A DNA stretch of 44,446 nt from Escherichia phage vB_EcoM_SHAK7704. The position numbers and the translations under genes are program-made. Below are positions 14,352-39,662 of the stretch, piece after piece (within the stretch, counting starts at the first letter, position 1; the number at the start of each line of letters is the position of its first letter). The stretch lies in the sequence record OR594181; one strand, 5' to 3'. The notes below the pieces were generated by a model. It had not been told where the DNA came from. It did no database searches and worked only from the letters and a program-made list of their open reading frames with translations.

Positions 14352-14367
14352 GTCTCACATGTGAGAC
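14352..14367 (+). repeat. 16-bp perfect palindrome GTCTCACATGTGAGAC (copy a)
   Basis: Directly upstream of the promoter at 14370. Confidence 0.8.
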
Positions 14368-14369
14368 TT

Positions 14370-14387
14370 ATTTACCGGACACTATAG
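14370..14387 (+). promoter_or_regulatory. Phage RNAP promoter ATTTACCGGACACTATAG
   Basis: Consensus with one substitution (C at position 7). Confidence 0.65.
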
Positions 14388-14543
14388 GATAGCCGTCGGA
14401 GACGGGAAAGAAAGGGAAGATAAAGGATATAAAGGAAGTAATAGGTATTAAAGGTTATATAGGTTATCTAGGAATACCTAGGAATACCTATTACCTTCTT
14501 CCTTCCTCTTATTACCACTTAGAGGAAGGGCAGACCTAGGTTG
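14388..14543 (+). other. Origin-like repeat region between two phage promoters
   Basis: AT-rich; AAAGGA iterons; tandem ctaggaataccta/ggaataccta; inverted repeat GGAAGTAATAGGTATT...AATACCTATTACCTTCC. Confidence 0.45.
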
Positions 14544-14559
14544 TCTCACATGTGAGACT
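14544..14559 (+). repeat. 16-bp palindrome GTCTCACATGTGAGAC (copy b)
   Basis: Directly upstream of the promoter at 14564. Confidence 0.8.
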
Positions 14560-14563
14560 TCGT

Positions 14564-14581
14564 ATTTACCGGACAGTATAG
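14564..14581 (+). promoter_or_regulatory. Phage RNAP promoter variant ATTTACCGGACAGTATAG
   Basis: Two substitutions from consensus; precedes the 14612 ORF. Confidence 0.5.
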
Positions 14582-14611
14582 ATAAGATTAACTCACTTTG
14601 GAGATTTAACC

Positions 14612-14740
14612 ATGCGTAACTTTGAGAAGATGGCCCGTAAAGCTAACCGTTTTGACATAGAAGAAGGGCAGAAGAAAGGCAAGAAGCTGAATAAACCTGT
14701 CCGTGATCGTGCATCTAAACGCGCTGCGTGGGAGTTCTAA
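14612..14740 (+). CDS. Small basic protein (42 aa), T7 gp1.1-like by position
   Basis: MRNFEKMARKANRF..., Lys/Arg-rich; first gene after RNAP; GGAG RBS; the gp1.1 likeness is from memory. Confidence 0.5.
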   Translation: MRNFEKMARKANRFDIEEGQKKGKKLNKPVRDRASKRAAWEF

Positions 14741-14743
14741 GTT

Positions 14744-14962
14744 ATGGCTAAATACAGAATCAAGACCTGTTTAAATAGTCACGGGCAAGAGTGCTACATA
14801 GTGCAACGTAAAGTATTAGGCTTAATATGGGTCACGTGTATGATGCCTATTGGCTATACTGATACAGAGGCTATCTTCTGCACCGAAAGGGATGCAAAGA
14901 AGTTTATCTCTGAGCGTAGAAAAGCTGACTCTTACCAACCCAGAACTATTAAGGTGAACTAA
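14744..14962 (+). CDS. Hypothetical protein
   Basis: 72 aa; stop overlaps the primase/helicase start. Confidence 0.5.
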   Translation: MAKYRIKTCLNSHGQECYIVQRKVLGLIWVTCMMPIGYTDTEAIFCTERDAKKFISERRKADSYQPRTIKVN

Positions 14963-16950
14963 TGGCTATTATTAATAACATCCCGTGCCCTGCCTGCCAG
15001 AAGAATGGACACGATAAATCCGGCAATCATCTCATGATATTTGATGATGGTGCTGGCTATTGTAACCGTGGTCATTTCCACGATAACGGCAAGCCTTACT
15101 ATCATAAGCCAGAAGGTGGCATCGAGATCACCGAGTTGCCTATTACTGGCAATATCAAATATACACCTTCTCAATTCAAAGAGATGGAGAAGGAAGGGAA
15201 GATAAGCGACCCTAAGTTACGCGCCATCGCACTTGGTGGTATGCGTATGAAAGACCGATGGGAGGTCATGAATGAGCAAGAAAGGGCAGACCAAGAAGCA
15301 GAGTGGAAACTTGATGTTGAATGGTTCCTCACGCTTAAGCGTAAGAATCTTGTTTCCCGACACATTCGCGGCGACATTTGCGCATTGTATGATGTACGTG
15401 TCGGACACGATGAAGATGGTAGAGTCTCACGGCATTACTATCCACGCTTCGAGAAAGGTGAGCTAGTAGGCGCTAAGTGTCGCACATTACCTAAAGACTT
15501 TAAGTTTGGTCATTTAGGTAAACTCTTTGGTATGCAAGATCTTTTCGGTATGAATACTTTGTCTCACGTGTTAGACAAGGGAAGACGAAAGGATTGCTTG
15601 CTTATTGTAGGTGGTGAACTTGATGCACTAGCAGCACAGCAAATGCTCCTTGATTCTGCCAAGGGTACTAAGTGGGAAGGCCAGCCTTACCATGTATGGT
15701 CTGTCAATAAAGGTGAGTCTTGCCTTGAAGAGATAGTACAGAACCGTGAACACATCGCCCAATTTAAGAAGATTATATGGGGTTTTGATGGCGACGAGGT
15801 GGGGCAGAAGCAGAATCAGCAAGCGGCTCGCCTGTTTCCTGGCAAATCCTATATCCTTGAATACCCTTCTGGTTGCAAAGATGCTAACAAGGCATTGATG
15901 GCTGGCAAGGCTAAAGAGTTTGTTGATGCTTGGTTTAATGCCAAGTCATCTGATGAAGTCTTTGGTAGCCAGATTAAATCTATCGCATCTCAAAGGGATA
16001 AGCTCAAGGCTGCACGTCCAGAGCAAGGACTATCATGGCCTTGGCCTAAGCTGAACAAGGTAACGCTAGGTATTCGTAAGAACCAGCTTATCATTGTAGG
16101 TGCAGGTTCTGGTGTAGGTAAGACTGAGTTCCTCCGCGAAGTGGTTAAACATCTCATTGAAGAACACGGTGAATCTGTAGGCATCATTTCTACAGAAGAC
16201 CCAATGGTCAAGGTGTCCCGTGCTTTTATCGGCAAGTGGATTGATAAGCGTATTGAGTTACCGCCAACCAACGACCCGAAAGAAGACGGATACCGTGAGG
16301 TGTTCGACTACACCGAGGAAGAAGCTAACGCTGCCATTGATTATGTAGCTGATACAGGAAAGCTATTTGTGGCTGACCTAGAAGGCGATTATTCTATGGA
16401 GAAGGTAGAGCAAACTTGCCTAGAGTTTGAGGCTATGGGCATTTCTAATATCATCATTGATAACTTAACGGGGATTAAATTAGATGAGCGTGCTTTTGGT
16501 GGGAAGGTTGGTGCACTTGATGAATGCGTCAAACGAATTGGTACTATCAAAGACCGACATGCGGTTACGATTTTCCTTGTCTCTCACCTTACACGTCCTC
16601 CGGCAAACCGTACCCAACACGAAGAAGGTGGCGAAGTTATCCTTTCTGACTTCCGAGGCTCAGGCGCTATCGGATTCTGGGCATCTTACGCCTTGGGGAT
16701 TGAGCGTAATACAAGAGCTGAAACGCTTGATGAAAGGACTACCACGTACATCTCGTGTGTCAAAGACCGCGATCAAGGTATCTACACTGGAACCAAGGTC
16801 ATGCTTAAAGGTGACATTCAGACCGGACGTTTGATGGAACCACAAGCCCGTACTAAGTCATTTGATACAGGTGAAGCAAGGCAGCAAGAGGTGCCTGATT
16901 TACCGGACACTATAGAAGAGACAAACTTTGAAGATGAACAGGAGTTTTAA
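14962..16950 (+). CDS. DNA primase/helicase (T7 gp4-like)
   Basis: 662 aa; N-terminal Cys4 zinc motif CPAC...C..GH; Walker A GAGSGVGKT; acidic C-terminus ending in Phe (EDEQEF). Confidence 0.9.
   Translation: MAIINNIPCPACQKNGHDKSGNHLMIFDDGAGYCNRGHFHDNGKPYYHKPEGGIEITELPITGNIKYTPSQFKEMEKEGKISDPKLRAIALGGMRMKDRWEVMNEQERADQEAEWKLDVEWFLTLKRKNLVSRHIRGDICALYDVRVGHDEDGRVSRHYYPRFEKGELVGAKCRTLPKDFKFGHLGKLFGMQDLFGMNTLSHVLDKGRRKDCLLIVGGELDALAAQQMLLDSAKGTKWEGQPYHVWSVNKGESCLEEIVQNREHIAQFKKIIWGFDGDEVGQKQNQQAARLFPGKSYILEYPSGCKDANKALMAGKAKEFVDAWFNAKSSDEVFGSQIKSIASQRDKLKAARPEQGLSWPWPKLNKVTLGIRKNQLIIVGAGSGVGKTEFLREVVKHLIEEHGESVGIISTEDPMVKVSRAFIGKWIDKRIELPPTNDPKEDGYREVFDYTEEEANAAIDYVADTGKLFVADLEGDYSMEKVEQTCLEFEAMGISNIIIDNLTGIKLDERAFGGKVGALDECVKRIGTIKDRHAVTIFLVSHLTRPPANRTQHEEGGEVILSDFRGSGAIGFWASYALGIERNTRAETLDERTTTYISCVKDRDQGIYTGTKVMLKGDIQTGRLMEPQARTKSFDTGEARQQEVPDLPDTIEETNFEDEQEF
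16898..16915 (+). promoter_or_regulatory. Phage RNAP promoter ATTTACCGGACACTATAG inside the primase/helicase 3' end
   Basis: 18-mer lies in coding sequence and encodes ...PDTIEE... Confidence 0.6.
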
Positions 16951-17111
16951 TGGAAATTATTAAACCAGTATTGAATATCGGTATTGAGATCCTATTCATG
17001 CTTGTGATCGCAGATTATGCTGCACGATATGGATTCAAGAAAGCGGTGAAACTTATCGTTGCATCTGGTTTTCTTATGTCAATGTTCTTTATTGTAACAC
17101 GCCTTATCTAG
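16950..17111 (+). CDS. Small membrane protein (53 aa)
   Basis: Not in the ORF track; TAATG overlap with the helicase stop; two hydrophobic segments. Confidence 0.4.
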   Translation: MEIIKPVLNIGIEILFMLVIADYAARYGFKKAVKLIVASGFLMSMFFIVTRLI

Positions 17112-17124
17112 TGTATTTATCAGG

Positions 17125-17148
17125 GCTTGTCTCACATGTGAGACAGGC
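17125..17148 (+). terminator. Palindrome-family hairpin with T-rich tail (copy c)
   Basis: GCTTGTCTCACATGTGAGACAGGC followed by tcttatt. Confidence 0.45.
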
Positions 17149-17183
17149 TCTTATTAAGTACATTAAATAACTGGAGATTGATT

Positions 17184-17867
17184 ATGTATAAATTAGTATT
17201 GAATGCAGGTGATTATGTTCGTAACATCAATGCAACCTCACGTAGATATCGTTGCCGTGGTACTGTGACTAATGTAAGTGAAAACAGCTACTATGTAGAG
17301 TACAGTAATGGTATTAGACAGGCTTATCAAAAGGAATCAGCACATAACTACCTTGAGAAGATTGGAGAGGTAAGCAATCAATGTAAGTGCGTACACGATG
17401 AGATTTGCGATAAGTGTGCCCGCCAGATGCATAAAATGCTATTATACCCTCTTCGCTATGGTGCTGGCATTCAAACCTTAGCAGAGGCATATGGCAAAGG
17501 TAAGACTACACTTAATAAAGATCGCCGCAATGTAATCACTGGTAAGACTCAAAGTGAAATGATTAAGCAATGTGGCACTGCACTAGGTGTTACGCAGTTT
17601 AACACTCGTGCTCTTGGTAAATCCACAGGACAAGCTATGGTGAAGATTGGTGAAGCCATGATGCACCCAAATGTACCTGTGCGAATCATGGATGTTGACC
17701 ATGCAATCACAGAACACGGTACACCACGACGTGTAGCTAATAAGCATTTTGCCGACACTATAGAAGTTATTATCCGTAAGCAAGGGTTGAAAGGTCTTCA
17801 CCTCTTGAATGGTGAAGAATTACTGTATCTCCCTATTGTTACTGAAGAAACCTACGTGAATATTTAA
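17184..17867 (+). CDS. Hypothetical protein with Cys cluster
   Basis: 227 aa; GGAG RBS before ATG 17184; CKCVHDEICDKC cluster; contains promoter-like 18-mer at 17746-17763. Confidence 0.6.
   Translation: MYKLVLNAGDYVRNINATSRRYRCRGTVTNVSENSYYVEYSNGIRQAYQKESAHNYLEKIGEVSNQCKCVHDEICDKCARQMHKMLLYPLRYGAGIQTLAEAYGKGKTTLNKDRRNVITGKTQSEMIKQCGTALGVTQFNTRALGKSTGQAMVKIGEAMMHPNVPVRIMDVDHAITEHGTPRRVANKHFADTIEVIIRKQGLKGLHLLNGEELLYLPIVTEETYVNI
17746..17763 (+). promoter_or_regulatory. Variant phage promoter ATTTTGCCGACACTATAG, intragenic
   Basis: Conserved GACACTATAG core with a divergent upstream half; encodes ...ADTIEV... Confidence 0.35.
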
Positions 17868-17877
17868 GGAGTTAATC

Positions 17878-18093
17878 ATGACTAAAGTTCTAATTTATAA
17901 ACAACGAGGTCTTAAGGCTTATGCTATTGTAGCACCAAATGGTGTTAAAAAAGTAAGTTGTAAGCCTCTTGCAATAAAAGGTGCAGGTATGTCTGCTAAC
18001 TTCCAATTGCAACTTTTTGGCAATTTCACAGAAGCGCAATTCCGCAATAAACATGAAGTTATTGGTTCTTTTATGGTGAAACATGCAGAATAA
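17878..18093 (+). CDS. Hypothetical protein
   Basis: 71 aa; AAGGAG RBS. Confidence 0.55.
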   Translation: MTKVLIYKQRGLKAYAIVAPNGVKKVSCKPLAIKGAGMSANFQLQLFGNFTEAQFRNKHEVIGSFMVKHAE

Positions 18094-18292
18094 ACACAGC
18101 CTTAAGATGTTTGATGGTCACGAAGACCTGCAAGCACACATCACTAACCAAGCCTTCCTGTTTGCACAGTTAACTATGGCTGAAGCAAAGAAGAATAGTC
18201 TGACACGTGAGCAGGTTATCAAGGAGGCAACTTGGGAGCCACACCAAGGCAAATACATGGGCCAGAGATTAACTGTAACACGCAGTCGATAA
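18083..18292 (+). CDS. Hypothetical protein
   Basis: 69 aa; overlaps the previous stop; followed by hairpin d. Confidence 0.5.
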   Translation: MQNKHSLKMFDGHEDLQAHITNQAFLFAQLTMAEAKKNSLTREQVIKEATWEPHQGKYMGQRLTVTRSR

Positions 18293-18298
18293 GTAAAG

Positions 18299-18322
18299 GG
18301 TTGTCTCACACGTGAGACAGCC
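18299..18322 (+). terminator. Palindrome-family hairpin (CACGTG core variant) with T-rich tail (copy d)
   Basis: GGTTGTCTCACACGTGAGACAGCC followed by tttcatc. Confidence 0.45.
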
Positions 18323-18350
18323 TTTCATCATATTGATTGGGAGGTATTAA

Positions 18351-18503
18351 ATGACTAAGTTTACTATGCAAGACCTCATTAAATTACGTGATGAAATAGA
18401 ATCACCGGAAGTTAATACAGAGTTTCACTACATTGATCCACGAGATAAACGAGAGATTCCTGATTATCAGATTGAGACGGAGTTAATGTATGAAGATTAT
18501 TGA
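18351..18503 (+). CDS. Small acidic protein (50 aa)
   Basis: Not in the ORF track; GGGAGG RBS; overlaps the DNA polymerase start. Confidence 0.4.
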   Translation: MTKFTMQDLIKLRDEIESPEVNTEFHYIDPRDKREIPDYQIETELMYEDY

Positions 18504-21036
18504 TTGGAAGAAGGAAGCAGAAGGCCGTATCCTAGTGATGGATGCAGAGGCTAAAGGCCTGCTGAATGCTATCCGCTATGGTCATCGTGAAGATGTGCAT
18601 ATCATTTGCTGCATGGACTTGCTTACTACCGAGGAGTTTCTCTTCTTTGACCCGTATGAGATGCGTGACCCTGAAGCAAGAGAACACCTGAAGGAATGGG
18701 AAGGTCATCAAGATGGTGACTTGGTTGATGGTGTTAACTTCCTGAAGCACTGTGAAGCTATTGTGTCGCAGAACTTCCTAGGGTACGACGGCCTTCTATT
18801 TGAGAAAGCATTCCCTGATATCTGGAAAGGATTTAACTATACCGAGAGACGCGGCAAGGGCAGACTCCGCGCTGACCTGTGTCCGGTACGCGTCATGGAT
18901 ACGCTGGTCATGAGTCGCCTGTTAAACCCCGATAGACGCCTCCCTCCGCAAGCATACGCCAAAGGCATGGGTAACGTCGCCCCTCACTCAATTGAGGCGC
19001 ACGGCATCCGTATAGGCCGTTATAAGCCGGAGAACGAGGATTGGTCTAAGCTAACTGACCACATGGTTCACCGTGTACGGGAGGACGTGGCGATAGGCCG
19101 TGACTTGTTCCTCTGGCTCTTTAACGGGGAATGGATGGAGCACAAACGCCGTGGCGTGAATAAACGCACTGGCCTAGGTATTGAGACAGCCTTCCACATG
19201 GAGTCCATTGTGGCGCTGGAGATGAGCCGTCAGGCCGAGCGTGGATTCCGTCTGGATATAGATAAAGCATTAGCACGATGCGAGGAATTGGACGCTAAGA
19301 TTGATGAGACAGTCGCAGCGTTCCGTCCGCACATGCCTATGCGTATCAAGTCTAAACCTTTTAAACCGGAAGAAAAGAATGAAGTATGCCAACGCGCAAA
19401 TGAGTATGGAGCTAGCAACAATATACCTACTGTCCTTGACCCCTCTCACTTTCTTCACGCAGAGAGACGAGGAGATCGCAAGACAGTATGGAGTGTCACT
19501 ACTAAGTCTGGTGATTGGTCGGCTAGCGTCAAGAAAGACTTTCCTCACCTTAGAGGAAACCGTAATGACACGCCAAGCATCAAGTGGATTGGCGCTTACT
19601 CGCCTGTTACTTTCGAAGAGATTCCCTTGGGTAACAGGGATACAGTTAAGCAAGTGCTTTATGATTATGGATGGAAAGGTGTTGAATTTAACGATACCGA
19701 GCAAGCGCATCTCGATGAGCATGGCGTATTACCCAAGCCTTGGAGTGGGAAGATAAATGAAAAGTCCCTTACTTTATGGCAAGAGAGAGCCGCACGTGAA
19801 GGTAAAACAGTCCCTGATTGGTGCTTGGGTATCGCTGCATGGTACATACTCGTATCCCGTCGTGGTCAGATCCTCAACCGTGGTGACGTTGAAGCCTTCG
19901 ACCAGAAGGGGGTGTGGCCTTCGCAAGCTGGTATACGAAAGTGTCGCGGCCTTGTACCTGTAGCATTTAACAAGGAGTTAGGAATCAATGCGCAGCAATA
20001 CTACGAAAGGTACGGATGCTGGCCTACGTCAGACAAGGATGACGGAGAATGGCGTGTGCCAGCTATTGCTATTAGTATTGGAACTTCTACGTTCCGTATG
20101 CGTCATCGTAACGTGGTTAATATTCCTGCCCGTGGTTTGTATCCTTTACGTGATTTATTCATAGCCGGTAAAGGTAAGCTAATCCTTGGTTGTGATGGTG
20201 CTGGTCTTGAACTACGTGTACTGTCTCACTTCATGAATGACCCTGAATATCAAGATATTGTACTGCATGGTGACATTCACACCCATAATCAAATGAAGGC
20301 TGGTCTTCCTAAGCGTGACATGGCGAAGACATTTATATATGCCTTCCTATATGGGTCTGGTATAGCTAACCTTGCAGCAGTATGTGGTGTTACTGAGGAA
20401 GAAATGGAGGAAGTTGTGGCAAGATTTGAGGTTGAACTACCATCTCTTGCACGCCTTCGTGAGAATGTTATCGCACAAGGTAACAAGTTTGGCTACCTAC
20501 AAGCACCTGATGGTCATTGGGGTCGCATCCGTATGTCTGGTGGTGAACTTAAAGAGCACACTATGCTTAACGTACTACTCCAGATGACGGGTTCTCTGTG
20601 TATGAAATACGCATTGGTCAGAGCGTTTGCAGTGATGCGCAAGGAAGGTGTGGCCTTAGATAGTATGGGAAACCCTTGCGGTATAGCTAACGTGCACGAT
20701 GAAATCCAGATGGAAGTCCCTGAAGATGAGGTCTTGTATCTCAACTACGACTTGCCTTTCACCTTAGAAGGGTTCGAAACAGAGAAGGCTGCTGTGAAAG
20801 CAGTGTTCGATGCAGAGGAGAAACGTGTTCATGTGGATTCTGAAGGACGTATGTGGTCTGCTGCAAATCTCGTTAGCGTTGATGCTGATGCTGGTGTACT
20901 TCATTGCCAGCGTCGTTATCACCGTGCAGGGCATATCATTGCCGATGCAATGACTTGGGCTGGTCATTATTTGAAGATGCGTTGTCCGATGGCAGGTGAG
21001 TATAAGATTGGTGCAAGCTGGAAGGAAACACACTGA
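18490..21036 (+). CDS. DNA polymerase, family A
   Basis: 848 aa; motif A DGAGLELRVLSH, motif B K...FIYAFLYGSG, motif C VHDE. Confidence 0.95.
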   Translation: MKIIDWKKEAEGRILVMDAEAKGLLNAIRYGHREDVHIICCMDLLTTEEFLFFDPYEMRDPEAREHLKEWEGHQDGDLVDGVNFLKHCEAIVSQNFLGYDGLLFEKAFPDIWKGFNYTERRGKGRLRADLCPVRVMDTLVMSRLLNPDRRLPPQAYAKGMGNVAPHSIEAHGIRIGRYKPENEDWSKLTDHMVHRVREDVAIGRDLFLWLFNGEWMEHKRRGVNKRTGLGIETAFHMESIVALEMSRQAERGFRLDIDKALARCEELDAKIDETVAAFRPHMPMRIKSKPFKPEEKNEVCQRANEYGASNNIPTVLDPSHFLHAERRGDRKTVWSVTTKSGDWSASVKKDFPHLRGNRNDTPSIKWIGAYSPVTFEEIPLGNRDTVKQVLYDYGWKGVEFNDTEQAHLDEHGVLPKPWSGKINEKSLTLWQERAAREGKTVPDWCLGIAAWYILVSRRGQILNRGDVEAFDQKGVWPSQAGIRKCRGLVPVAFNKELGINAQQYYERYGCWPTSDKDDGEWRVPAIAISIGTSTFRMRHRNVVNIPARGLYPLRDLFIAGKGKLILGCDGAGLELRVLSHFMNDPEYQDIVLHGDIHTHNQMKAGLPKRDMAKTFIYAFLYGSGIANLAAVCGVTEEEMEEVVARFEVELPSLARLRENVIAQGNKFGYLQAPDGHWGRIRMSGGELKEHTMLNVLLQMTGSLCMKYALVRAFAVMRKEGVALDSMGNPCGIANVHDEIQMEVPEDEVLYLNYDLPFTLEGFETEKAAVKAVFDAEEKRVHVDSEGRMWSAANLVSVDADAGVLHCQRRYHRAGHIIADAMTWAGHYLKMRCPMAGEYKIGASWKETH

Positions 21037-21318
21037 TGGACAGGTTTGATGTTGTTTGCCTATTCTCTATCTTCTTTCTTATATTCCTTATGCTTGCTTG
21101 CTATGGAAGTATGCGATTAGATATACCTGATGAAGAGGAGGGTTACGATTGATGCAAACTGCTTTTATCATTCTTGGGATCATATTATTTATGGTAGTAT
21201 TCTGGGCTTTCTCTGGCATTGACCCAGATTGTGATGGTAACTACGACTGAGTTATACTCAAGGTCACTTACGAGTGGCCTTTATGAATAACTTATTCCTA
21301 CTTATTTTGTCTAACATG

Positions 21319-21336
21319 ATTTACTGGACACTATAG
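21319..21336 (+). promoter_or_regulatory. Phage RNAP promoter ATTTACTGGACACTATAG
   Basis: Exact consensus. Confidence 0.7.
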
Positions 21337-21406
21337 AAGGAAAGCCTAGGTAATCTAGGTTTATAAGGTAGTATAGGTAATTAAGTAAATATAGGAGATA
21401 TAAAAT

Positions 21407-21784
21407 ATGTCTATGGTAACTACTCTGGTATTCGTGGCTCAATACTTTCGTGGTCTTGCTAATAAGTTCAAGTCCAAGGCTATCAAAGCTATTGAGGCTC
21501 GCATCGAAGCAGTACAGGCAGAGCAAGTTAAAGTTGAAGAACATCGTAGTTCTCAAATGATTGACTGCCATAACCGCTACTATGCATCTCGTGATGAACT
21601 AAATGCACGTCAAGTCAAAGAGGTAGAAGATATGCTGGCACGTCACCAGCAAGAGCGTGACAGCCTGAAAGCTGAATTTGAAGAGAACAAGGCATCAATT
21701 GCTCTTGTAAATCAAGCTGCATCTGACAGCCTGAAGAAAGAGATTGTTATGCTGGAAATAGAACTGGACAACTTGACTAAATAA
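21407..21784 (+). CDS. Hypothetical coiled-coil protein
   Basis: 125 aa; AGGAG RBS; heptad-like charged sequence. Confidence 0.6.
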   Translation: MSMVTTLVFVAQYFRGLANKFKSKAIKAIEARIEAVQAEQVKVEEHRSSQMIDCHNRYYASRDELNARQVKEVEDMLARHQQERDSLKAEFEENKASIALVNQAASDSLKKEIVMLEIELDNLTK

Positions 21785-21789
21785 GGGTT

Positions 21790-22089
21790 ATGATGGAAGA
21801 AGTGATTCAAGCTAAACATGTAGGTATCATCTTTCGTGATCTAGAGCAGCGTAAAGTTGCAGGTCACACTCGTCTGGCTAAAGAAGACGATACAGCAATC
21901 ACTACTGTGGAACAAGCAGATGCCTATCGTGGTCCAGAGTTTACTCAAGGTGAAACTTGTCATCAATTGAGCCTTTCACTTTGTGACACTATGGCTAGTG
22001 TAAATGTACAAGAGGTTGAAGATGGTGAATGTGTTAGTTATGTCTACCCTCTCGATACTATTGCACGTATTAAGGTAGTTCATAAGTAA
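21790..22089 (+). CDS. Hypothetical protein
   Basis: 99 aa. Confidence 0.55.
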   Translation: MMEEVIQAKHVGIIFRDLEQRKVAGHTRLAKEDDTAITTVEQADAYRGPEFTQGETCHQLSLSLCDTMASVNVQEVEDGECVSYVYPLDTIARIKVVHK

Positions 22090-22104
22090 TTACTGGACAC
22101 TATA
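22087..22104 (+). promoter_or_regulatory. Phage RNAP promoter AATTACTGGACACTATAG
   Basis: Consensus with one upstream substitution. Confidence 0.65.
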
Positions 22105-22166
22105 GAACAATAGGTCGGCTTAGTTCGGCCTATGATTGTGTAGTGTAACAATAGGAGACTAAATAA

Positions 22167-22973
22167 ATGGCACGTGGTGATTTTGATTTTGGTGCTCAGG
22201 TTACTAAAGCTGAAGGTAAAGTATTTAAGAACCCTGAAGTTGGTGATCATGAAGCAGTAATCTCTGGCATCATTCATGTTGGTTCCTTCCAAGATATCTT
22301 TAAGAAAGGTAATACCACTGAAGTTAAGAAGCCAGCAAACTTTGTTCTTGTTAAGATTATCCTGATGGGTGACGACGATAAGAATGAAGATGATTCTCGC
22401 ATGGAACAATGGATGGCTGTGCCTCTGAAGTCTGGTGATAAGGCAACGCTGACTAAGTTCCTGAATGCAGTTGACCCTAAAGAGTTGCTGGGTGGCTTCG
22501 ATGATTTTATCGGTGAATGTCTGACTGCAACTATGGTTGGCTCTGGTGACAAGAATGATGATGGTACTTTCAAGTATGTTAACTGGAAAGGCTTTGGCGG
22601 TATGCCTGATAAGTTGAAGAAGCTTGTACTGGCTCAGGTAGAAGAGGAAGGTCTGTCTATGACAGGTCATATCACCTTCGACAAGCTGACCAAAGAAATC
22701 CTTGATGACATCCCAGCTAACTTGGTACGTCAATACTTCCTGAATGAGACACCTCGTGGTAAGAACCTGTCTGTTGCTGGCTCTCACGTAGAAGCTATTA
22801 TCAAAGCTGCTCGTGAAGAAGACCCTGAATGGAAGAAGGCTAAGAAGAAAGATGAGGAAGATGCTACCCCAGCTAATCGTAAATCTCTGGATACTGGTGA
22901 GTCTGTTCCACAGGAAGTACCTGAAGCAGAAGATACTCCTGCACCGGAGATGGATGAGGACGCGGAATATTAA
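22167..22973 (+). CDS. Putative single-stranded DNA-binding protein (T7 gp2.5-like architecture)
   Basis: 268 aa; AGGAG RBS; acidic C-terminal tail ending in an aromatic residue (...EMDEDAEY); in the replication cluster. Assigned by architecture, not by alignment. Confidence 0.5.
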   Translation: MARGDFDFGAQVTKAEGKVFKNPEVGDHEAVISGIIHVGSFQDIFKKGNTTEVKKPANFVLVKIILMGDDDKNEDDSRMEQWMAVPLKSGDKATLTKFLNAVDPKELLGGFDDFIGECLTATMVGSGDKNDDGTFKYVNWKGFGGMPDKLKKLVLAQVEEEGLSMTGHITFDKLTKEILDDIPANLVRQYFLNETPRGKNLSVAGSHVEAIIKAAREEDPEWKKAKKKDEEDATPANRKSLDTGESVPQEVPEAEDTPAPEMDEDAEY

Positions 22974-22982
22974 GGAGAAAGG

Positions 22983-23201
22983 ATGAAAGTACAAATCGTA
23001 ACCCTGCACTGCAAGAAAGGAATTACAACTCTTGGCGGCAACACTTTTCACTCCTTCTCTGAAGGGGACACATATGCCGACCTGCACTACATCTGGCGCG
23101 ACGGACAGCACGTGGTGAACTACAGCGATCCAGCTACGGGGAAACGCCACGGCGTATCGCTTCCGGCGCATGACATTGCTCAGGTGAACACAGTTTTATA
23201 A
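22983..23201 (+). CDS. Hypothetical protein, locally GC-rich
   Basis: 72 aa; strong AAGGAGAAAGG RBS; GC-rich codons unlike neighbours. Confidence 0.55.
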   Translation: MKVQIVTLHCKKGITTLGGNTFHSFSEGDTYADLHYIWRDGQHVVNYSDPATGKRHGVSLPAHDIAQVNTVL

Positions 23202-23202
23202 A

Positions 23203-23218
23203 GTCTCACGTGTGAGAC
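23203..23218 (+). repeat. 16-bp palindrome GTCTCACGTGTGAGAC (copy e)
   Basis: Perfect palindrome; directly upstream of the promoter at 23234. Confidence 0.8.
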
Positions 23219-23233
23219 AAATCGGTGTCCGGT

Positions 23234-23251
23234 ATTTACTGGACACTATAG
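23234..23251 (+). promoter_or_regulatory. Phage RNAP promoter ATTTACTGGACACTATAG
   Basis: Exact consensus. Confidence 0.7.
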
Positions 23252-23306
23252 AAGAGAAGAATTTTAATCGGCGATAATGCCATAACCAACAAAAGGAGAA
23301 TTTAAT

Positions 23307-23678
23307 ATGTTCAAGATTGAAACTATCGTAAACCGTGTTGTTAAAGGTGCTGCTCTGGTATCCGTTGAGTCTTTCATTATCGTCGATGAAGCTGATCAAC
23401 TGGTAGCTGGTACTAAGGCTTACGATACCCGTGAAGAAGCTCAGGCTAAGATTGACAGCATGGGTAACTTCGCTGCTGGTCTGGAGTTCGCTCGTGCTTG
23501 CTTCCCTGAGCAGGCTGACAAAGCCCAGATCGGGAAGGCTAACATCGTAGCTGAATATCTGGATTGGATTGCTGCTGGTAAACCAGTGAAAGAAGTTAAA
23601 GCTGCTGAAGAAGCTGAAGCTCCTGCAGTAGAAGTGTCTGCACCGGAAGCTCCGGTTAGCGAAGAGGAAGAGTTTTGA
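23307..23678 (+). CDS. Small acidic protein, apparently highly expressed
   Basis: 123 aa; own promoter and terminator; AAAAGGAG RBS; C-terminus ...VSEEEEF. Confidence 0.65.
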   Translation: MFKIETIVNRVVKGAALVSVESFIIVDEADQLVAGTKAYDTREEAQAKIDSMGNFAAGLEFARACFPEQADKAQIGKANIVAEYLDWIAAGKPVKEVKAAEEAEAPAVEVSAPEAPVSEEEEF

Positions 23679-23746
23679 TAATAGCAGGTGTAGCCTCTGT
23701 TAGTCCTAGTTGACTATCACGCTCACCTCATCTAATGCCCTGTCTG

Positions 23747-23773
23747 CCTTAGTGTAGGCAGGGTCTTTTGCGT
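23747..23773 (+). terminator. Intrinsic terminator, same family as the one after the capsid gene
   Basis: GCCCTGTCTGCC-ttagtg-TAGGCAGGG then TCTTTTG. Confidence 0.6.
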
Positions 23774-23795
23774 AATAGTTATTGGAGAATGAATT

Positions 23796-24068
23796 ATGCC
23801 GACTATTGAATCTCGAATTGAACTGGACATTAGCTACAATGCAATCACCAGACAGTATATTGGGGTTGCCTATGATTACAAAACTGGTGAGAAGCTAGTG
23901 GAGGTGAGACAATGGGATGACTATTGGTTAAGACAGAACCTCCATGATGCGGTGTCCTCCTTCTTGAAGGAGTGGCCTACATGCGACCAAACTTCGACTT
24001 CGGAGCTACAGTATCGGAAGACAATAATCTCATCCTGTGGCCGACTGAAGGTAATCGAATCGCTTTAA
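23796..24068 (+). CDS. Hypothetical protein (3' end overlaps exonuclease)
   Basis: 90 aa; GGAG RBS; last ~29 codons overlap the exonuclease in another frame. Confidence 0.45.
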   Translation: MPTIESRIELDISYNAITRQYIGVAYDYKTGEKLVEVRQWDDYWLRQNLHDAVSSFLKEWPTCDQTSTSELQYRKTIISSCGRLKVIESL

Positions 24069-26419: not shown

Positions 26420-26475
26420 AACAAAGGGTAGGTATTAGCTTACCCTTGATTGTATAGTGAATGGAGGAATTAATT

Positions 26476-28195: not shown

Positions 28196-28200
28196 GGGTA

Positions 28201-28328
28201 TGGAGATGCTTGAGATGATTCTCAAGCCTTCTTCTCCGAAGGTGACTAAGACTCACGAAGAATTAATCGTAGATGAAGTTAAGCGTTACATAATGGATTG
28301 TGTCAGAGCACAACTGGTGGTCCAATGA
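28201..28328 (+). CDS. Hypothetical small protein
   Basis: 42 aa from ATG 28201 after GAGGG (track ORF 28146-28328); ATGA coupling to the next gene. Confidence 0.35.
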
Positions 28329-28786: not shown

Positions 28787-28795
28787 GGAGATAAC

Positions 28796-29005
28796 ATGGG
28801 TGTTGTAAAGAAAGCATTTAAGGCTATCGGTCTTGCTCAAGATGCACCACGTATTGAAGCCAAAGTCCCAGCACAGCAGCTTGAGCGTAAGCCTGAGACT
28901 GAAGCTGAAGATATTCAAATTGGTGCAGGTGGTGATGATGCGACTGCATCTGCAAAAGGTAAGCGCGGCCTTGTCCGTCCGGTAGCTTCTAGCTTGAAGG
29001 TGTAA
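28796..29005 (+). CDS. Small virion-associated protein (gp6.7-like by position)
   Basis: 69 aa; AAGGAG RBS; charged with basic C-terminus; directly upstream of portal. Confidence 0.5.
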   Translation: MGVVKKAFKAIGLAQDAPRIEAKVPAQQLERKPETEAEDIQIGAGGDDATASAKGKRGLVRPVASSLKV

Positions 29006-29006
29006 T

Positions 29007-31477: not shown

Positions 31478-31482
31478 TCAGT

Positions 31483-31500
31483 ATTTACTGGACACTATAG
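31483..31500 (+). promoter_or_regulatory. Phage RNAP promoter ATTTACTGGACACTATAG (capsid gene)
   Basis: Exact consensus; transcript begins with hairpin GGGAGA-aatg-TCTCCC. Confidence 0.75.
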
Positions 31501-31553
31501 AAGGGAGAAATGTCTCCCTAAATTATCAATTTGATTTATAAGGAGGTTTATTA

Positions 31554-32762: not shown

Positions 32763-32769
32763 TACCTAT

Positions 32770-32805
32770 GCCCTATCTACCTTGCGTAGGTAGGGTTCTT
32801 TTGTT
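32770..32805 (+). terminator. Intrinsic terminator after the capsid gene
   Basis: CCCTATCTACC-ttgcg-TAGGTAGGG stem then TTCTTTTGTT; homologous to the terminator at 23747. Confidence 0.7.
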
Positions 32806-32815
32806 AGGAGGATTC

Positions 32816-33553
32816 ATGCCTGTAATTAGACAAACCAGTAAAGTAGGACATATGATGGAAGATGTGGCCTTCCAGATTATTGATAGTAAGCTGGAAGCGG
32901 TAAACTTGTGTATGCGAGCTATTGGTCGTGAGGGTGTGGATTCTCTCGACTCAGGTGACTTGGACGCAGAAGATGCAAGCAAGATGATCGACATCGTATC
33001 CCAGCGATTCCAGTACAACAAAGGAGGTGGCTGGTGGTTCAATCGTGAACCAAACTGGCAGATTGCACCTGATACCAATGGTGAAGTCAATCTACCTAAC
33101 AACTGCCTAGCAGTATTGCAGTGTTATGCTTTGGGTGAGAAGAAAGTACCCATGACTATGCGAGCAGGTAAGCTCTACTCTACTTGGAGTCACACCTTTG
33201 ATATGCGTAAGCATGTTAATGCTAATGGTATGATTCGTCTTACCTTACTCACCTTACTGCCCTACGAGCATTTACCTACAAGTGTAATGCAGGCTATTGC
33301 CTATCAAGCTGCTGTAGAGTTTATTGTGTCTAAGGATGCAGATCAGACTAAGCTAGCCACTGCGCAGCAGATAGCCACTCAGCTTCTTATGGATGTACAA
33401 TCTGAGCAAATGTCACAGAAGCGATTAAACATGCTGGTACATAACCCCACTCAGCGTCAGTTTGGTATCATGGCTGGTGGCTCTCAGAATGTACCTGCTT
33501 ACTCTCATTCACCTTATGAGAGTTGGGCGCTCCGTCCGTGGGAGGATCGTTAA
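32816..33553 (+). CDS. Tail tubular protein A (T7 gp11-like)
   Basis: ATG 32816 after AGGAGG; pattern shared with T7 gp11 as recalled. Confidence 0.8.
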   Translation: MPVIRQTSKVGHMMEDVAFQIIDSKLEAVNLCMRAIGREGVDSLDSGDLDAEDASKMIDIVSQRFQYNKGGGWWFNREPNWQIAPDTNGEVNLPNNCLAVLQCYALGEKKVPMTMRAGKLYSTWSHTFDMRKHVNANGMIRLTLLTLLPYEHLPTSVMQAIAYQAAVEFIVSKDADQTKLATAQQIATQLLMDVQSEQMSQKRLNMLVHNPTQRQFGIMAGGSQNVPAYSHSPYESWALRPWEDR

Positions 33554-35955: not shown

Positions 35956-36677
35956 TGGCTATAGGTTCAGCCGTTATGGCTGGTATGTCTTCTATTGGTA
36001 GCATGTTTGCAGGCAGTGGTGCAGCAGCCGCTGCTGGAGGTGCTGCCGCAGGTGGCGGAGGTTTGCTAGGTTCACTAGGTGGATTCCTAAGTGGCTCTAC
36101 TGCTGGTTTCTCTAATGCCGGCCTTCTTGGTGCTGGCCTTCAAGGGTTAGGCTTGATTGGTGATCTATTTGGTGGAAGTGATGAAGCCAAGGCGATGAAG
36201 AAAGCACAAGAAGAGCAATGGCGGCAGCAGCTTATTGCTACACAAGAGGCGTACAAGACAGTGGCAGACGCAGAACGTTCTGCTGCTAAACAATATCATG
36301 CAGATGCAATCAGTAATCAGGCTTCACTGCTACAGCAGCGAGCACAGGTTGCATTACTTGCTGGGGCTACTGGTACTGGTGGTAATTCTGTGTCCTCTAT
36401 GCTTAACGACTTAGCAGCAGATGGCGGCAGGAACCAGAGTACTATCATTGATAACTATGAGAATCAGAAGATTAATTTCACCAACCAGCTTAAGTCTATC
36501 CAACGTGGTGGTCAGATGCAGATGCGTGAGTTTAAGAAGCCTTCTGCTATGAATACCTTGGTTAAAGGTATTCCAAGTCTGGCATCTGCCTATGTAACTG
36601 GTAGTAAGTCTGGCAAGGCATTGGGTAAAGCCTTAACTGATTCTCGCACATATTCATCTGGAACAAGAGGTATTTAA
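35955..36677 (+). CDS. Internal virion protein (Gly/Ala-rich)
   Basis: ATG 35955 after AAAGGAGG; Gly/Ala-rich N-terminus. Confidence 0.65.
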   Translation: MAIGSAVMAGMSSIGSMFAGSGAAAAAGGAAAGGGGLLGSLGGFLSGSTAGFSNAGLLGAGLQGLGLIGDLFGGSDEAKAMKKAQEEQWRQQLIATQEAYKTVADAERSAAKQYHADAISNQASLLQQRAQVALLAGATGTGGNSVSSMLNDLAADGGRNQSTIIDNYENQKINFTNQLKSIQRGGQMQMREFKKPSAMNTLVKGIPSLASAYVTGSKSGKALGKALTDSRTYSSGTRGI

Positions 36678-39625
36678 TGGCAATTGAGCGACAAGCAGTA
36701 CAAGGTCTGCCACAAGTGCAGGCCACTTCTCCTAATGTCATGACCTTTGCACCTCAACAAGTGGGAGGTGTGGAGGCTGGCGTGGCTTCTACCTCCGGTA
36801 GTAGATTTATCGAAGACCTTATTCGTGCAGCAAGCAGCGTGGCTGATGTTACCACTGGTATCCTTAATCAGAAGATTGAGGAAGATAAGGTTGTTCAGAT
36901 GGAACGGGCATATAACGGATTAATGCCTTCTGAGGATGCAACTCGTGGTGGCGCTCGTGCTAACATGCTTGTCAAAGCTCAACTGCTAGCTAATGATGAA
37001 GCAGCACGAATGAAAGACATGGCTACTCGTTTCCAAGGGACGGATGACGAGTGGACACAACTTATGGTTGACTCTCGTAATGAGATGCAGAATAAGCTGT
37101 TCCAGCAATACCCTGAGTTGCAAGGTGACAAAGATACTATGCGTATGGTCACTAATGTCTTCCAAGAACAGCAGCCTCAGATTTGGGCTACACGGACCCA
37201 GCATAAACTTGACCGTGAACAAGCAGACCGTGAGGATACCTTTGACGGGCGAGTGGCTTCTACTTGGGATTCTAATATTGACCCTGAAGCTTCTGGCTAT
37301 GCTTTACAGGAACGAATCCGCGAAGGTCTTACTCAAGGATTACTACCTGAACAGATGCACAAGAAGTTAGTCCAGCGAGCAATTTCACTTGCACAAGGCG
37401 GTGATGTTAGCATGGCTGAAGCCCTGAAGTATGTGAAGGACGATAATGGTGTTTCTGTTTATGCTAAGAATCCACAGCTTATCACAGCCATCACTAGTGG
37501 TAATGCAGTTTGGGCTAGGAATAATGTAGCTGATGTAACTCGTATGTCTTTCGAAGTTAAAGAATCATACCTTGCAGGTGATTTAACTGATGAAGAATTG
37601 TTGGAACGAGCACAGCACATTAATAATCTGACAGGTAACTATGTCTTCTCTAATCCAGAACTAGAGGCACTGATGCGCCAAAGGGCTAAGCAGAATGCAG
37701 AGCTAGGTGCAATGCAGGATATGCGACGTGAGCTTTACTCCGACCGCCTGACTGGCTTCCAAGGTAAGACTGATAAAGAGAAGAAGGCTTACATTGATGT
37801 TATCAAACAGGATAGCCAACTTTATGCAGACCAGCAAATCAAACAACGTGGCTTGGATCCTTACAGTCAAGAGGCTGAAGCTATTCGTGGTGCAGTGGAA
37901 GTGCAGCGTCTGCAATTCATGAACTCCAAAGGCTTAGTGGATGACACCTTTGAGTCTCGTATCAAAGCCATGGAATCTATGCTATCGCCTGAGCACTTTG
38001 CCAAGGGCGAACCACAGGAGTTGATGACTATTCGCCAGTTGTGGGAACAGTTGCCAGAAGAGAGCCGAGGTGTCTTTGGTGACACGGTTAATGGCTACAT
38101 GGATAACTACAACACTGCACTACAAATGGGAGAGACACCTTTGCAGGCTGCAAGGTTTGCGCGTGAAGCACAGCAGAAATTCTCTCGTACTGAGAAGGAA
38201 ACCAAGAAGTTCAACTCAGCTATTGGAGATGCGCTGGATGAGGTATCTGGTGCTGGCTGGTTTGATGGTAAAACCGAAGTGTCAGACTTAGGTAAAGCTA
38301 TTGCGGAAGAAGAGTTACGAGCTAAGGCCAATATGTTGTGGTCTAGCGGTATGCGTAACATGGATTCTATCAAGAAGGCTTTAATTACTTGGGGCAATAA
38401 ACGCTACACTCAATCAGAGGATGCAAAGACTTCCGGTGGCTATTTCATTAAAGGTGATTACACTTCTGCATCTGATATGCTTATGTCAGTTGGGAAAGGC
38501 GTAAACCCTACCGATGTACCTCTGGCGCTTGGTAGGTATGTAGAAACACAGATGCCAGAATTGAAGAAGGAGCTTCAAGAGTGGGAAACTAAAGATGATA
38601 TATACATTGATTACAATGAACAGAAAGGAACTTTTGTGATTCGTGCTGGTGCAGCAGGTCGCCCTCTTTCTGGAGTAATCCCTGTAACCTCTTTAGATAC
38701 TACTTCACTACTAGATTCTGCCTATCAGAAGAAAGTAGAGGAACGAGATAAAGGCGAGTATGTTCACCCGTATCGTACAGATATTGGTGCACAAGAGCCT
38801 ATGCCAGCTAAACCAACTGCCAAAGATATTGGTAAATTTGGACTAGCTAACTTCCTCATGTCTTCTGCTTTTGCTTCTGGTGAGAATCTACCTTCTAACT
38901 TCGAGATTAACTATCGAGGTAATATGCAACAATTCTATGACAAGCTAGCTATGGATGAGAATAAAGATAAAGTTGGCTTTAATAAGGCAACTGGAACCTT
39001 TACTCCATATAAAGACGCTCACGGTGAGTCTATCGGTTACGGTCATTTCTTAACGGAAGAAGAGAAGCGAAACGGGTATATTAAGATTGGCGATGAACTA
39101 GTTCCCTATCGAGGGTCTATGTCTCAGCTTACAGAGAGTAAGGCTCGCGCTCTTATGGAGCAAGATGCTAAGAAGCATGTGCCTCCTACTCGTGACTGGA
39201 AGATTCCGTTTGACCAGATGCATCCTGCACAGCAACGTGGCTTGATGGATTTAACCTACAATTTAGGTAAAGGTGGAATCCAGAACTCACCGCGTGCTCT
39301 TGCTGCATTCAAAGCTGGTAAGCTTACGGAAGGCTTTATCGAAATGCTGGGCACTGCATCAAGTGAAGGTAAGCGTATTCCTGGCCTACTGAAGCGACGC
39401 GCTGAGGCATACAATATGGCATCTGCTGGTGGTGTGCCTAAGATTACCGAAGTGGAGACTCGTGAAGATAGCTCCATGTGGGTTAGGTTTGGTGGACCTA
39501 TGCCAGCAGGTTCTGTCTCGGCATGGACTCATAAACGTATTGGCGCGGATGGTTGGTATCAGGTTTATGAGGCTGCACCTACCAAGTTAGCTAAAGGTTC
39601 TAAGGTAGGTAAAGTTAAGTTGTAG
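36677..39625 (+). CDS. Internal virion protein with C-terminal lysozyme-like domain
   Basis: 982 aa; C-terminal region has GESIGYGH in a T4-lysozyme-like context. Confidence 0.7.
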   Translation: MAIERQAVQGLPQVQATSPNVMTFAPQQVGGVEAGVASTSGSRFIEDLIRAASSVADVTTGILNQKIEEDKVVQMERAYNGLMPSEDATRGGARANMLVKAQLLANDEAARMKDMATRFQGTDDEWTQLMVDSRNEMQNKLFQQYPELQGDKDTMRMVTNVFQEQQPQIWATRTQHKLDREQADREDTFDGRVASTWDSNIDPEASGYALQERIREGLTQGLLPEQMHKKLVQRAISLAQGGDVSMAEALKYVKDDNGVSVYAKNPQLITAITSGNAVWARNNVADVTRMSFEVKESYLAGDLTDEELLERAQHINNLTGNYVFSNPELEALMRQRAKQNAELGAMQDMRRELYSDRLTGFQGKTDKEKKAYIDVIKQDSQLYADQQIKQRGLDPYSQEAEAIRGAVEVQRLQFMNSKGLVDDTFESRIKAMESMLSPEHFAKGEPQELMTIRQLWEQLPEESRGVFGDTVNGYMDNYNTALQMGETPLQAARFAREAQQKFSRTEKETKKFNSAIGDALDEVSGAGWFDGKTEVSDLGKAIAEEELRAKANMLWSSGMRNMDSIKKALITWGNKRYTQSEDAKTSGGYFIKGDYTSASDMLMSVGKGVNPTDVPLALGRYVETQMPELKKELQEWETKDDIYIDYNEQKGTFVIRAGAAGRPLSGVIPVTSLDTTSLLDSAYQKKVEERDKGEYVHPYRTDIGAQEPMPAKPTAKDIGKFGLANFLMSSAFASGENLPSNFEINYRGNMQQFYDKLAMDENKDKVGFNKATGTFTPYKDAHGESIGYGHFLTEEEKRNGYIKIGDELVPYRGSMSQLTESKARALMEQDAKKHVPPTRDWKIPFDQMHPAQQRGLMDLTYNLGKGGIQNSPRALAAFKAGKLTEGFIEMLGTASSEGKRIPGLLKRRAEAYNMASAGGVPKITEVETREDSSMWVRFGGPMPAGSVSAWTHKRIGADGWYQVYEAAPTKLAKGSKVGKVKL

Positions 39626-39638
39626 TACCTAACTCAAG

Positions 39639-39662
39639 GCTTGTCTCACATGTGAGACAGGT
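39639..39662 (+). terminator. Palindrome-family hairpin with T-rich tail (copy f)
   Basis: GGCTTGTCTCACATGTGAGACAGG followed by tctttat. Confidence 0.45.

Follow-up and report, generated by a model that had tools for sequence, protein, structure and literature searches.

A recurring 16-bp palindrome in a K1E-like phage genome, found in RNase III-type hairpin tips and as a candidate operator of the early protein gp6

What purpose is served by a 16-bp palindrome that recurs across the genome of Escherichia phage vB_EcoM_SHAK7704 (sequence record OR594181), and do its copies act as terminators, as protein-binding sites or as both? An earlier note on this DNA had listed seven sites, read three gene-end copies as terminators and proposed that the element might also bind a dimeric protein. 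The stretch analyzed (the window; 44,446 nucleotides) covers the whole genome, in circularly permuted form, of a K1E-like Vectrevirus (Autographiviridae, Molineuxvirinae, SP6 group). Over the region tested, its identity to Escherichia phage K1E KY435490 is 99%, and all of its genes run left to right. The reading argued here, which is given about an even chance of being right as a whole and is built on sequence comparison, is that three copies form the tips of RNase III hairpins and that the 16-mer is a candidate operator for a dimer of the early protein gp6.

The recurrence of the palindrome is real and non-random. When the window was searched with the pattern GTCTCACRYGTGAGAC, allowing up to two mismatches, eight sites were found where 0.03 would be expected by chance, and none of 100 shuffles reached 16 strand matches. 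The sites begin at 7990 (one mismatch), 14352, 14543, 15561 (one mismatch), 17129, 18303, 23203 and 39643; the positions listed earlier therefore hold except that 14544 becomes 14543, and the copy at 15561, which lies in the primase/helicase gene, had been overlooked. The full form of the 16-mer with its flanking bases is T-GTCTCAC-RY-GTGAGAC-A, and the 18-bp version is TGTCTCACATGTGAGACA. The earlier description of a perfect palindrome applies only among the copies that contain CACATGTG, as those with CACGTGTG and CACACGTG have an asymmetric centre. Five copies stand by themselves:

7990..8005, copy L, GTCTCACATGTTAGAC, near the left end; core only, one mismatch
14352..14367, copy D1, after the early terminator 14286-14309; its end lies 2 bp before the phage promoter 14370-14390
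14543..14558, copy D2; its end lies 5 bp before the phage promoter 14564-14584
15561..15576, copy G, GTCTCACGTGTTAGAC, inside the primase/helicase open reading frame; codons TCT CAC GTG TTA GAC
23203..23218, copy E; its end lies 15 bp before the promoter 23234-23254

Copies D1, D2 and E thus sit just upstream of phage promoters, as had been claimed. The promoter behind D2 precedes the homologue of T7 gene 1.1 (14612-14740), and the arrangement at D1 (early terminator, palindrome, phage promoter) was found in all genera examined. Copy L lies approximately 85 bp upstream of the first host-type promoter and has orthologues in K1E, K1-5, SP6, ULIP33, PP1, Pm5460, phiEa100, uligo, Achelous, VEN, PP99 and P220. 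The GenBank records of SP6 and K1-5 have no feature annotated at the palindrome sites, an Rfam scan of the window matched no family anywhere, and the exact 16-mer was not found in the literature searched, a search that lay outside the original SP6 and K1-5 genome papers.

The other three copies share extended flanks (GGCTT/GGGTT ... AGGCT/AGCCT/AGGTC), in agreement with the earlier description. Each of them proved to be the apical part of a longer, two-part hairpin of the T7 RNase III processing type, and not a stand-alone terminator as had been proposed:

17106..17175, + strand, RNase III-type two-part hairpin A, after the primase/helicase gene; its tip is the palindrome at 17129-17144; covariance model score 77 bits
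18277..18349, + strand, RNase III-type two-part hairpin B, before the DNA polymerase gene region; its tip is the palindrome at 18303-18318; 71.6 bits
39617..39689, + strand, RNase III-type two-part hairpin C, between the internal virion protein genes gp35/gp36; its tip is the palindrome at 39643-39658; 76.2 bits

The common fold of the three hairpins (approximately 60 nt; z = -4.4 for hairpin A) comprises a lower stem of 9-10 bp and an upper stem of 13-14 bp, separated by a small internal loop that is conserved (UC on its 5' side, UAU on its 3' side). An alignment of 35 copies of these sites from more than 10 genomes and contigs yielded a consensus of 24 pairs, with 97.2% of cells paired and compensatory double changes at 13 of the 24. 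The covariation score was 0.528 against 0.183 in shuffles (none of 500 reached the observed value), and it fell to 0.05-0.12 when the pairing partner was slid. The G-U wobbles are conserved on the + strand only; since they would be A-C mismatches on the opposite strand, the hairpins are taken to be + strand RNA.

The resemblance to T7 was found with a covariance model that was built solely from the SP6-group copies. Applied to the T7 genome, the model returned six matches (E 6e-5 to 3e-3) and nothing else below E = 4:

T7 847-911, 1422-1489, 5842-5908, 13848-13913, 18499-18584 and 36811-36877, matches to the covariance model

According to the T7 annotation, these matches lie directly upstream of genes 0.3, 0.5, 1.1, 4.7, 6.5 and 18.5, at the places of the sites R0.3, R0.5, R1.1, R4.7, R6.5 and R18.5, each named after its adjacent gene. 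With the T7 RNase III cleavage coordinates reportedly given by Dunn and Studier in 1983, the flanks ACUCAAGG...CCUUUAUGA are common to hairpins A/B/C and the T7 sites. R4.7, R6.5 and R18.5 are confirmed by name as T7 cleavage sites (bioRxiv 10.1101/106799). Beneath the palindrome there is a U-G pair in 30 of the 35 copies and a U-A pair in 34, at a distance from the loop that is 2 bp shorter than in T7 R1.1; UA/UG is the canonical optimal distal box of RNase III, and the internal loop restricts the enzyme to a single cut that leaves a protective 3' hairpin (PMC1540722). The likeness to the T7 sites extends to the two-part architecture, the flanks, the U-A/U-G pair at the putative distal-box position, mutual detection by the covariance model and an intergenic position just before a ribosome-binding site. 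The difference lies in the upper stem, which is approximately 10 bp in T7 and is longer here because the constant 16-nt palindrome replaces the short cap and tetraloop of T7; in addition, the palindrome stands alone at five places without RNase III context.

Three hairpins of the same type were found that do not carry the palindrome:

9785..9847, + strand, RNase III-type hairpin directly before the ocr-like gene; z = -5.7; position as T7 R0.3
11576..11642, + strand, RNase III-type hairpin directly before the RNA polymerase (RNAP) gene; z = -3.6; position as T7 R1
21243..21303, + strand, RNase III-type hairpin with the T7-type upper stem GGUCACU UACG AGUGGCC; before the promoter 21319

Conversely, the copies at 7990, 14352, 14543, 15561 and 23203 have no lower stem: only their 16-nt core matches the covariance model (12-15 bits, positions 25-44). 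Shuffles fold at least as well as the sequences at 7990, 14352 and 14543, and the folds at 15561 and 23203 are better than shuffles (z of -2.3 and -2.2) only via other helices. Folding each site thus gave a two-part hairpin at the three gene-end copies alone. Hairpins A/B/C are very probably RNase III processing sites rather than terminators, as judged by their homology to the T7 sites. Cleavage by the RNase III of the host would fall within the internal loop, on its 3' side, which would separate the cistrons and leave the upstream mRNA with a protective 3' hairpin.

A terminator function must be weighed against this more generally, because the copies might be intrinsic (class I) terminators, or hairpins at which the polymerase of the phage or of the host pauses, with those adjacent to promoters insulating them from read-through. 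ARNold and MFOLD have led to a 'terminator' annotation at the copy behind the primase/helicase gene (site A) in MK373771 and Pm5460. However, the T-rich tails at hairpins A/B/C, in which the earlier note saw a U-run, are the 3' side of the internal loop and the lower stem, where they are base-paired with covariation. A scan for intrinsic terminators covering 14000-24000 flagged the early terminator 14286-14309, a hairpin at 23737-23764 and, weakly, 14352 and 14543 (at the minimum of six pairs, three of them G-C; tails TTATTTAC and TTCGTATT), but 17129, 18303 and 23203 were left unflagged and fail to combine a G+C-rich stem-loop with a free U run. The hairpin at 23737-23764, after gene 18, is a strong terminator-like structure (GCCCTGTCTGCC...GGCAGGGT followed by CTTTTG).

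Like class I terminators such as T7 T-phi and SP6 t5, the palindrome forms a stem-loop on the strand that is transcribed; behind some copies there is a U-rich stretch, and in uligo and Achelous the copies behind the RNAP gene are followed by TTTTC. Seven SP6 RNAP terminators have been counted, the nearest start site being 14 bp away, and the t5 terminator has been given as CCCTATCTACCTTGCGTAGGTAGGGTTCTTTTGTTT (PMC11347151). Some palindrome copies may be among the seven; t5 itself was considered as a copy and rejected, as it is the capsid-gene terminator and not the palindrome. Unlike class I terminators, the gene-end copies lack a G+C-rich stem with a free U-run and have a constant stem sequence, and other copies lie inside genes or upstream of all promoters. 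Terminators need neither a constant stem sequence nor lineage-wide changes of the arms, nor copies in the RNAP and primase genes that break pairs. The left-end copy precedes every rightward promoter, and if 39643 were a terminator, genes 36-40 would be left untranscribed, since they lack a promoter of their own up to 1898. The palindrome is therefore probably not a terminator, and the proposal that all copies terminate or pause a polymerase was judged improbable. The earlier suggestion of a dual-purpose element survives insofar as two contexts do occur; its terminator half is not supported, the gene-end copies being the tips of RNase III-type hairpins. The class II pause consensus HATCTGTT matched seven times in the window (6.2 expected), and none of the matches adjoins a palindrome.

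What, then, is the palindrome itself? In the 35-copy alignment the seven core pairs hardly vary, whereas the surrounding stems of the same hairpins covary freely, so pairing alone does not explain the conservation. The core is an independent module, because RNase III hairpins exist without it and five of its eight copies exist without the lower stem. It also occupies orthologous positions throughout Molineuxvirinae and Colwellvirinae: at the left end, inside the RNAP gene (in some relatives; not in this window), after the RNAP gene as one or two copies that precede phage promoters, and within the primase gene or behind it. The spacing of the two copies behind the RNAP gene varies from 35 to 380 bp across genomes. 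The check that had been proposed, a search of SP6, K1-5 and K1E, found the motif at orthologous positions in all three, with different arms in SP6.

The sequence of the arms is specific to the lineage, and within a genome the arms and the length of the centre change together. GTCCAAC-RY-GTTGGAC, with a 2-nt centre, is the form in SP6-like, Klebsiella and Pectobacterium PP1 phages (SP6, ULIP33, PP1, F4M1D); SP6 has GTCYAAC...GTTGGAC at every orthologous site, and Proteus phage Pm5460 has GTCCAAC arms with a 3-nt centre at five of six sites. GTCTCAC arms are found with a 2-nt centre in K1E-like phages and Erwinia phiEa100, and with a 3-nt centre in the Colwellvirinae Pseudomonas uligo, Achelous, Vibrio VEN and Aeromonas HJG. 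Two further types are GTCTAGT...ACTAGAC in Pectobacterium PP99 and GTRTACT...AGTACAC in Aeromonas P220.

The copies inside coding genes are informative in this respect. In 11 sequences from outside the K1E group, the copy in the primase/helicase gene reads [ACT]TG TCY AAC GTG TTG GAC, with no synonymous variation save the Y that the motif allows, while the neighbouring codons vary freely; in Pm5460 both the motif and its amino acids have been lost. The same codons in the K1E clade read TTG TCT CAC GTG TTA GAC. At 15561, three of the four positions that discriminate the arm types have been switched to the GTCTCAC type (one synonymous change, one Asn to His and one synonymous), and the fourth change would create a TGA stop; the copy comes as near to the motif as the reading frame permits. 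The change from Asn to His breaks a base pair (C opposite U), which argues for selection on arm identity and not on hairpin stability. The same coding-limited form, GTCTCACGTGTTAGAC, is present in the RNAP gene of phiEa100 where PP1 has GTCCAACGTGTTAGAC, and its origin there was independent. The RNAP genes of uligo, Achelous and VEN encode different amino acids at this place (VSHCET, VSRCET) and spell a perfect palindrome with a 3-nt centre.

A palindrome that acts solely as RNA, either as a hairpin bound by gp6 or another protein or as a signal for stabilizing or processing mRNA 3' ends, would account for part of these data. The three gene-end copies certainly form + strand RNA helices, and their variants are exclusively of the wobble-compatible kind (U opposite G); this strand asymmetry is suggestive for the hairpin copies, and a mutation bias on the non-template strand would give the same result. 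Core-only copies, on the other hand, tolerate C-A and C-U mismatches (window 7990 and 15561; PP1 5622; F4M1D 1099, 1845 and 7676), and in-gene copies have changed in ways that break a pair and yet match the arm consensus. A centre of 2 or 3 nt would suit a loop, and in the prophage cassettes described below the palindrome lies at approximately +10 relative to a T7-type promoter and is continued as a long 5' hairpin; but a 6-bp stem alone is weak, the core-only folds at 7990, 14352 and 14543 being no more stable than shuffles, and little rightward transcription is expected at the left end and behind the early terminator. The nearest known system of this sort is lambda N/boxB, in which a short hairpin-forming element likewise co-varies with an early phage protein. 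The left-end and post-terminator copies are not placed as nut sites are, pair-breaking changes are tolerated and the polymerase here is single-subunit. An exclusively RNA-level role was therefore considered unlikely.

It was considered whether the copies could instead be a selfish or mobile short palindromic repeat, or a product of gene conversion, with no function. Copies within one genome are identical and some Vectrevirus genomes mix arm types, as might be expected of such a repeat, but the positions are orthologous across two subfamilies, synonymous sites inside genes are frozen, and the changes compatible with coding are discontinuous (positions 4, 5 and 13, not 12), unlike conversion tracts. 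No new insertion of the 16-mer at a non-orthologous site was seen between close relatives. This explanation is very hard to sustain and was rated the least probable of all.

The palindrome combines dyad symmetry with a sequence conserved beyond the needs of pairing, as expected of an operator for a dimeric protein, and binding by a dimeric, sequence-specific protein, as the earlier note had suggested, is the best reading of the comparative data. A sequence-specific, trans-acting reader of the 16-mer is likely on this evidence. The changes in the in-gene copies, together with the mismatch tolerance of the core, argue for a reading of the core-only copies one half-site at a time, in duplex DNA, and recognition of duplex DNA is somewhat favoured over recognition of RNA. 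Candidates for such a reader were sought among the early and middle proteins common to all palindrome-bearing phages, which are only four; their genes in the window are:

10703..11587, + strand, gene 6 (gp6, 294 amino acids), an early gene just upstream of the RNAP gene; candidate palindrome reader
11651-14278, RNAP gene
14962-16950, primase/helicase gene
18490-21036, DNA polymerase gene

T7, which has no gp6, also has no palindrome. Residues were screened for positions at which the window, phiEa100 and uligo agree and differ from all GTCCAAC phages. One of the three positions returned is residue 66 of gp6, in the conserved helix F-x-I-K-K-A-Q-C-Y-X-L-M (X being residue 66), where the window has K66. 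Residue 66 is K with GTCTCAC arms, N or H with GTCYAAC arms and R where the arms are of another type, a rule that held in all 20 genomes and contigs. Among them are six lineages added afterwards as a test, which conformed: K in Achelous, VEN and HJG, N in Klebsiella F4M1D, and R in PP99 and P220. This co-variation makes gp6 the candidate reader, with putative binding, at a probability a little short of even.

Other readers were considered. The RNAP has only one position with the discriminating pattern, and its specificity loop is unlikely to be the reader because phages with very different promoters share GTCCAAC. The Cys/His-rich gp10 was rejected, as its motif region is missing in Pm5460 and PP1, both of which bear the palindrome. 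A host transcription factor was rejected on account of near-chance hits in genomes and the breadth of hosts (Escherichia, Pseudomonas, Vibrio, Aeromonas): in 185,579 species, each represented by one genome, the 18-mer gave 53 scattered hits, against a rough chance estimate of approximately 35, and no enterobacterial genome was among the matches listed. An uncultured Spirochaetia metagenome-assembled genome (CBDAOI01) has six copies of the 18-mer (TGTCCAACRYGTTGGACA) on three contigs (L133, L135, L142, L157, L176, L179), presumably as an unrelated genomic repeat. Pfam and PHROGs searches with ten early and middle open reading frames returned only Phage_1_1 and families of unknown function.

In the most likely account of these observations, the 16-mer would be the operator at which the conserved early protein gp6 binds double-stranded DNA as a dimer, and three of the operators would be placed in the tips of RNase III hairpins. 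The dual context would then be explained because, in a compact genome, hairpin tips are among the few intergenic places that can hold a palindrome harmlessly. As a guess, a gp6-bound operator might act in the early and DNA-metabolism region as a boundary, a roadblock or a repressor, or in connection with an origin; the sites lie upstream of the early promoters, after the early terminator by the first phage promoters, and in the RNAP gene of relatives. The operators of the lambda and P22 repressors and Cro are comparable in having dyad symmetry with a variable centre and several copies near promoters, and the match of lineage half-site types to a residue in a helix of a conserved early protein adds to the likeness. 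Unlike lambda and P22, this phage is strictly lytic, copies also occur in coding genes and hairpin tips, the distance to the promoter is not fixed (1-18 bp upstream of -17) and gp6 belongs to no recognized helix-turn-helix family.

In Colwellvirinae a palindrome copy immediately follows the stop codon of the gp6 homologue (HJG, L190 2606-2660; Achelous, L188 3188), which may reflect autoregulation by gp6; in HJG that copy is directly followed by a T7-type RNase III hairpin (CTCAAGGTCATTCAATGAGTGGCCTTTATGG). The gp6 homologue of Aeromonas phage Aer_P220 (L193 3923-4918) bears the GenBank label 'late transcription factor VLTF-4', which is probably automatic and without experimental basis.

A replication or recombination signal at the DNA level, either an origin or initiator site or a set of outward-facing primase (GTC) sites by a T7-like origin region, would be an alternative to a gp6 operator. 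The primary replication origin of T7 lies after the RNAP gene, just upstream of gene 1.1, and here two copies bracket the promoter pair upstream of the gene-1.1 homologue, with a purine-rich run and a 17-bp inverted repeat in the bracketed interval. That spacing, however, ranges widely between genomes, as given above, and although most copies are found among replication genes, there is also one at the left end, one that separates virion genes, and one within the RNAP gene. The core of T7 primase sites is 5'-GTC. All arm types have GT at the start and AC at the end; where the arms are of the K or N type, the start is GTC and the end GAC, so that both strands of these carry 5'-GTC; the trinucleotide alone nevertheless leaves 14 conserved positions unexplained, and we know of no initiator for these sites. 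A signal of this kind was accordingly held to be a poor prospect, on a par with the terminator.

Several observations count against the operator hypothesis and its gp6 component. Some Vectrevirus genomes retain GTCCAAC (K1-5 9570, L067 3222, and site C of L022/L124), which means either that any reader tolerates both types or that those copies are decaying; the retained copies look like an incomplete switch. In SP6, changes compatible with U-G pairing (T4 opposite G13) outnumber C-A changes, which fits a constraint on RNA, and a change of centre from 2 to 3 nt (Pm5460 has both lengths) would be harder to accommodate for a rigid dimer on a duplex than for the loop of a hairpin. Residue 66 came from a post hoc screen in which 3 of approximately 2000 aligned positions show the initial pattern, its correlation with the arms amounts to about three independent switches on the tree, and PP99 and P220 both have R66 with different arms. 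The protein has no recognized DNA-binding domain and no Pfam domain above threshold, a match to DUF3102 being sub-threshold (7 of 12 members; best E 0.008); no sequence relative was found in the PDB, and the AlphaFold model is unreliable (predicted local distance difference test score, pLDDT, 48). As for the hairpins, cleavage by RNase III is argued from homology. A homology search with gp6 returned only relatives of more than 90% identity, and the predicted structure of gp6 is helical and includes an acidic linker that is disordered, a long helix read as a coiled coil, and a C-terminal domain that hardly varies.

The SP6 group supplies a standard laboratory RNA polymerase, and K1E and K1-5 are candidates for phage therapy, while regulation in the group beyond its promoters is still largely presumed to be T7-like. 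The analysis provides a conserved cis element with a concrete candidate reader, gp6, whose specificity is predicted to depend on one residue. It also maps the likely RNase III processing sites of SP6-group phages and offers a link to prophage cassettes with promoters for two families of phage polymerase. If gp6 does bind these sites, a new layer of control would be added to a model phage group and a function assigned to a DUF3102-like domain.

The cassettes were recognized in many prophage contigs, each with a single GTCCAAC palindrome (GTCCAACRYGTTGGAC) between a T7-type and an SP6/K1E-type promoter that point in the same direction (for example CAATACAACTCACTAATGGAGAGGCTT and ATTTACTGGACACTATAGAAGGA, respectively). 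The palindrome begins at approximately +10 to +13 of the T7-type promoter.

L023 8775-8885 (minus strand) and L132 ~3050-3120, prophage cassettes; also in L011, L015, L018, L027, L034, L039, L093 and others

In E. coli the cassette is 111 bp long, is unannotated and occurs in lambdoid prophages between the terminase module and iss/bor, upstream of the latter and ahead of the lysis module; it was found in 535 of 5426 complete genomes. No paper describing the cassette was found in the literature search. Other cassette families carry other promoter variants, and in L093 the promoters run antisense into the lysis genes. When another phage infects, its RNA polymerase may be what such a cassette responds to, as a switch. 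Taken together with the operators, this suggests a broader but rather doubtful possibility, drawn from the sequences compared, that gp6 and its operators are an unrecognized regulatory pair of the SP6 group and that lambdoid prophage cassettes copied the operator as a switch. Were this so, gp6 would be a DUF3102-like dimer with 6-10 operator palindromes at fixed landmarks, its specificity types would have switched several times, operators would be written into the coding sequences of RNAP and primase, and the prophage operator between T7-type and SP6-type promoters (in approximately 10% of complete E. coli genomes) would fire upon infection.

Some further structures accompany the palindromes. 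Directly after copy E is a second hairpin (approximately 23223-23247) that contains the specificity region of the promoter, its upstream arm pairing with promoter positions -12 to -3. In SP6, PP1, Pm5460 and several contigs, changes in the promoter sequence are accompanied by changes in this arm, and the hairpin resembles the predicted folds at T7 R6.5 and R13, which include promoter sequence. The interval between the promoters behind the RNAP gene (14390-14540) holds a small conserved hairpin (CCGTCGGAGACGG), the purine-rich run and an inverted repeat of 16-17 bp (GGAAGTAATAGGTATT ... AATACCTATTACCTTCTTCC).

The physical left end of the genome is at approximately 7400-7670. A 134-nt perfect tandem duplicate at 7398-7531 and 7532-7665 probably represents the two copies of the direct terminal repeat, brought side by side because the assembly is permuted. 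The concatemer junction of T7 carries a class II pause/termination consensus, and here TATCTGTT, at 7665-7672 and directly after the 134-nt tandem, is a match to that consensus.

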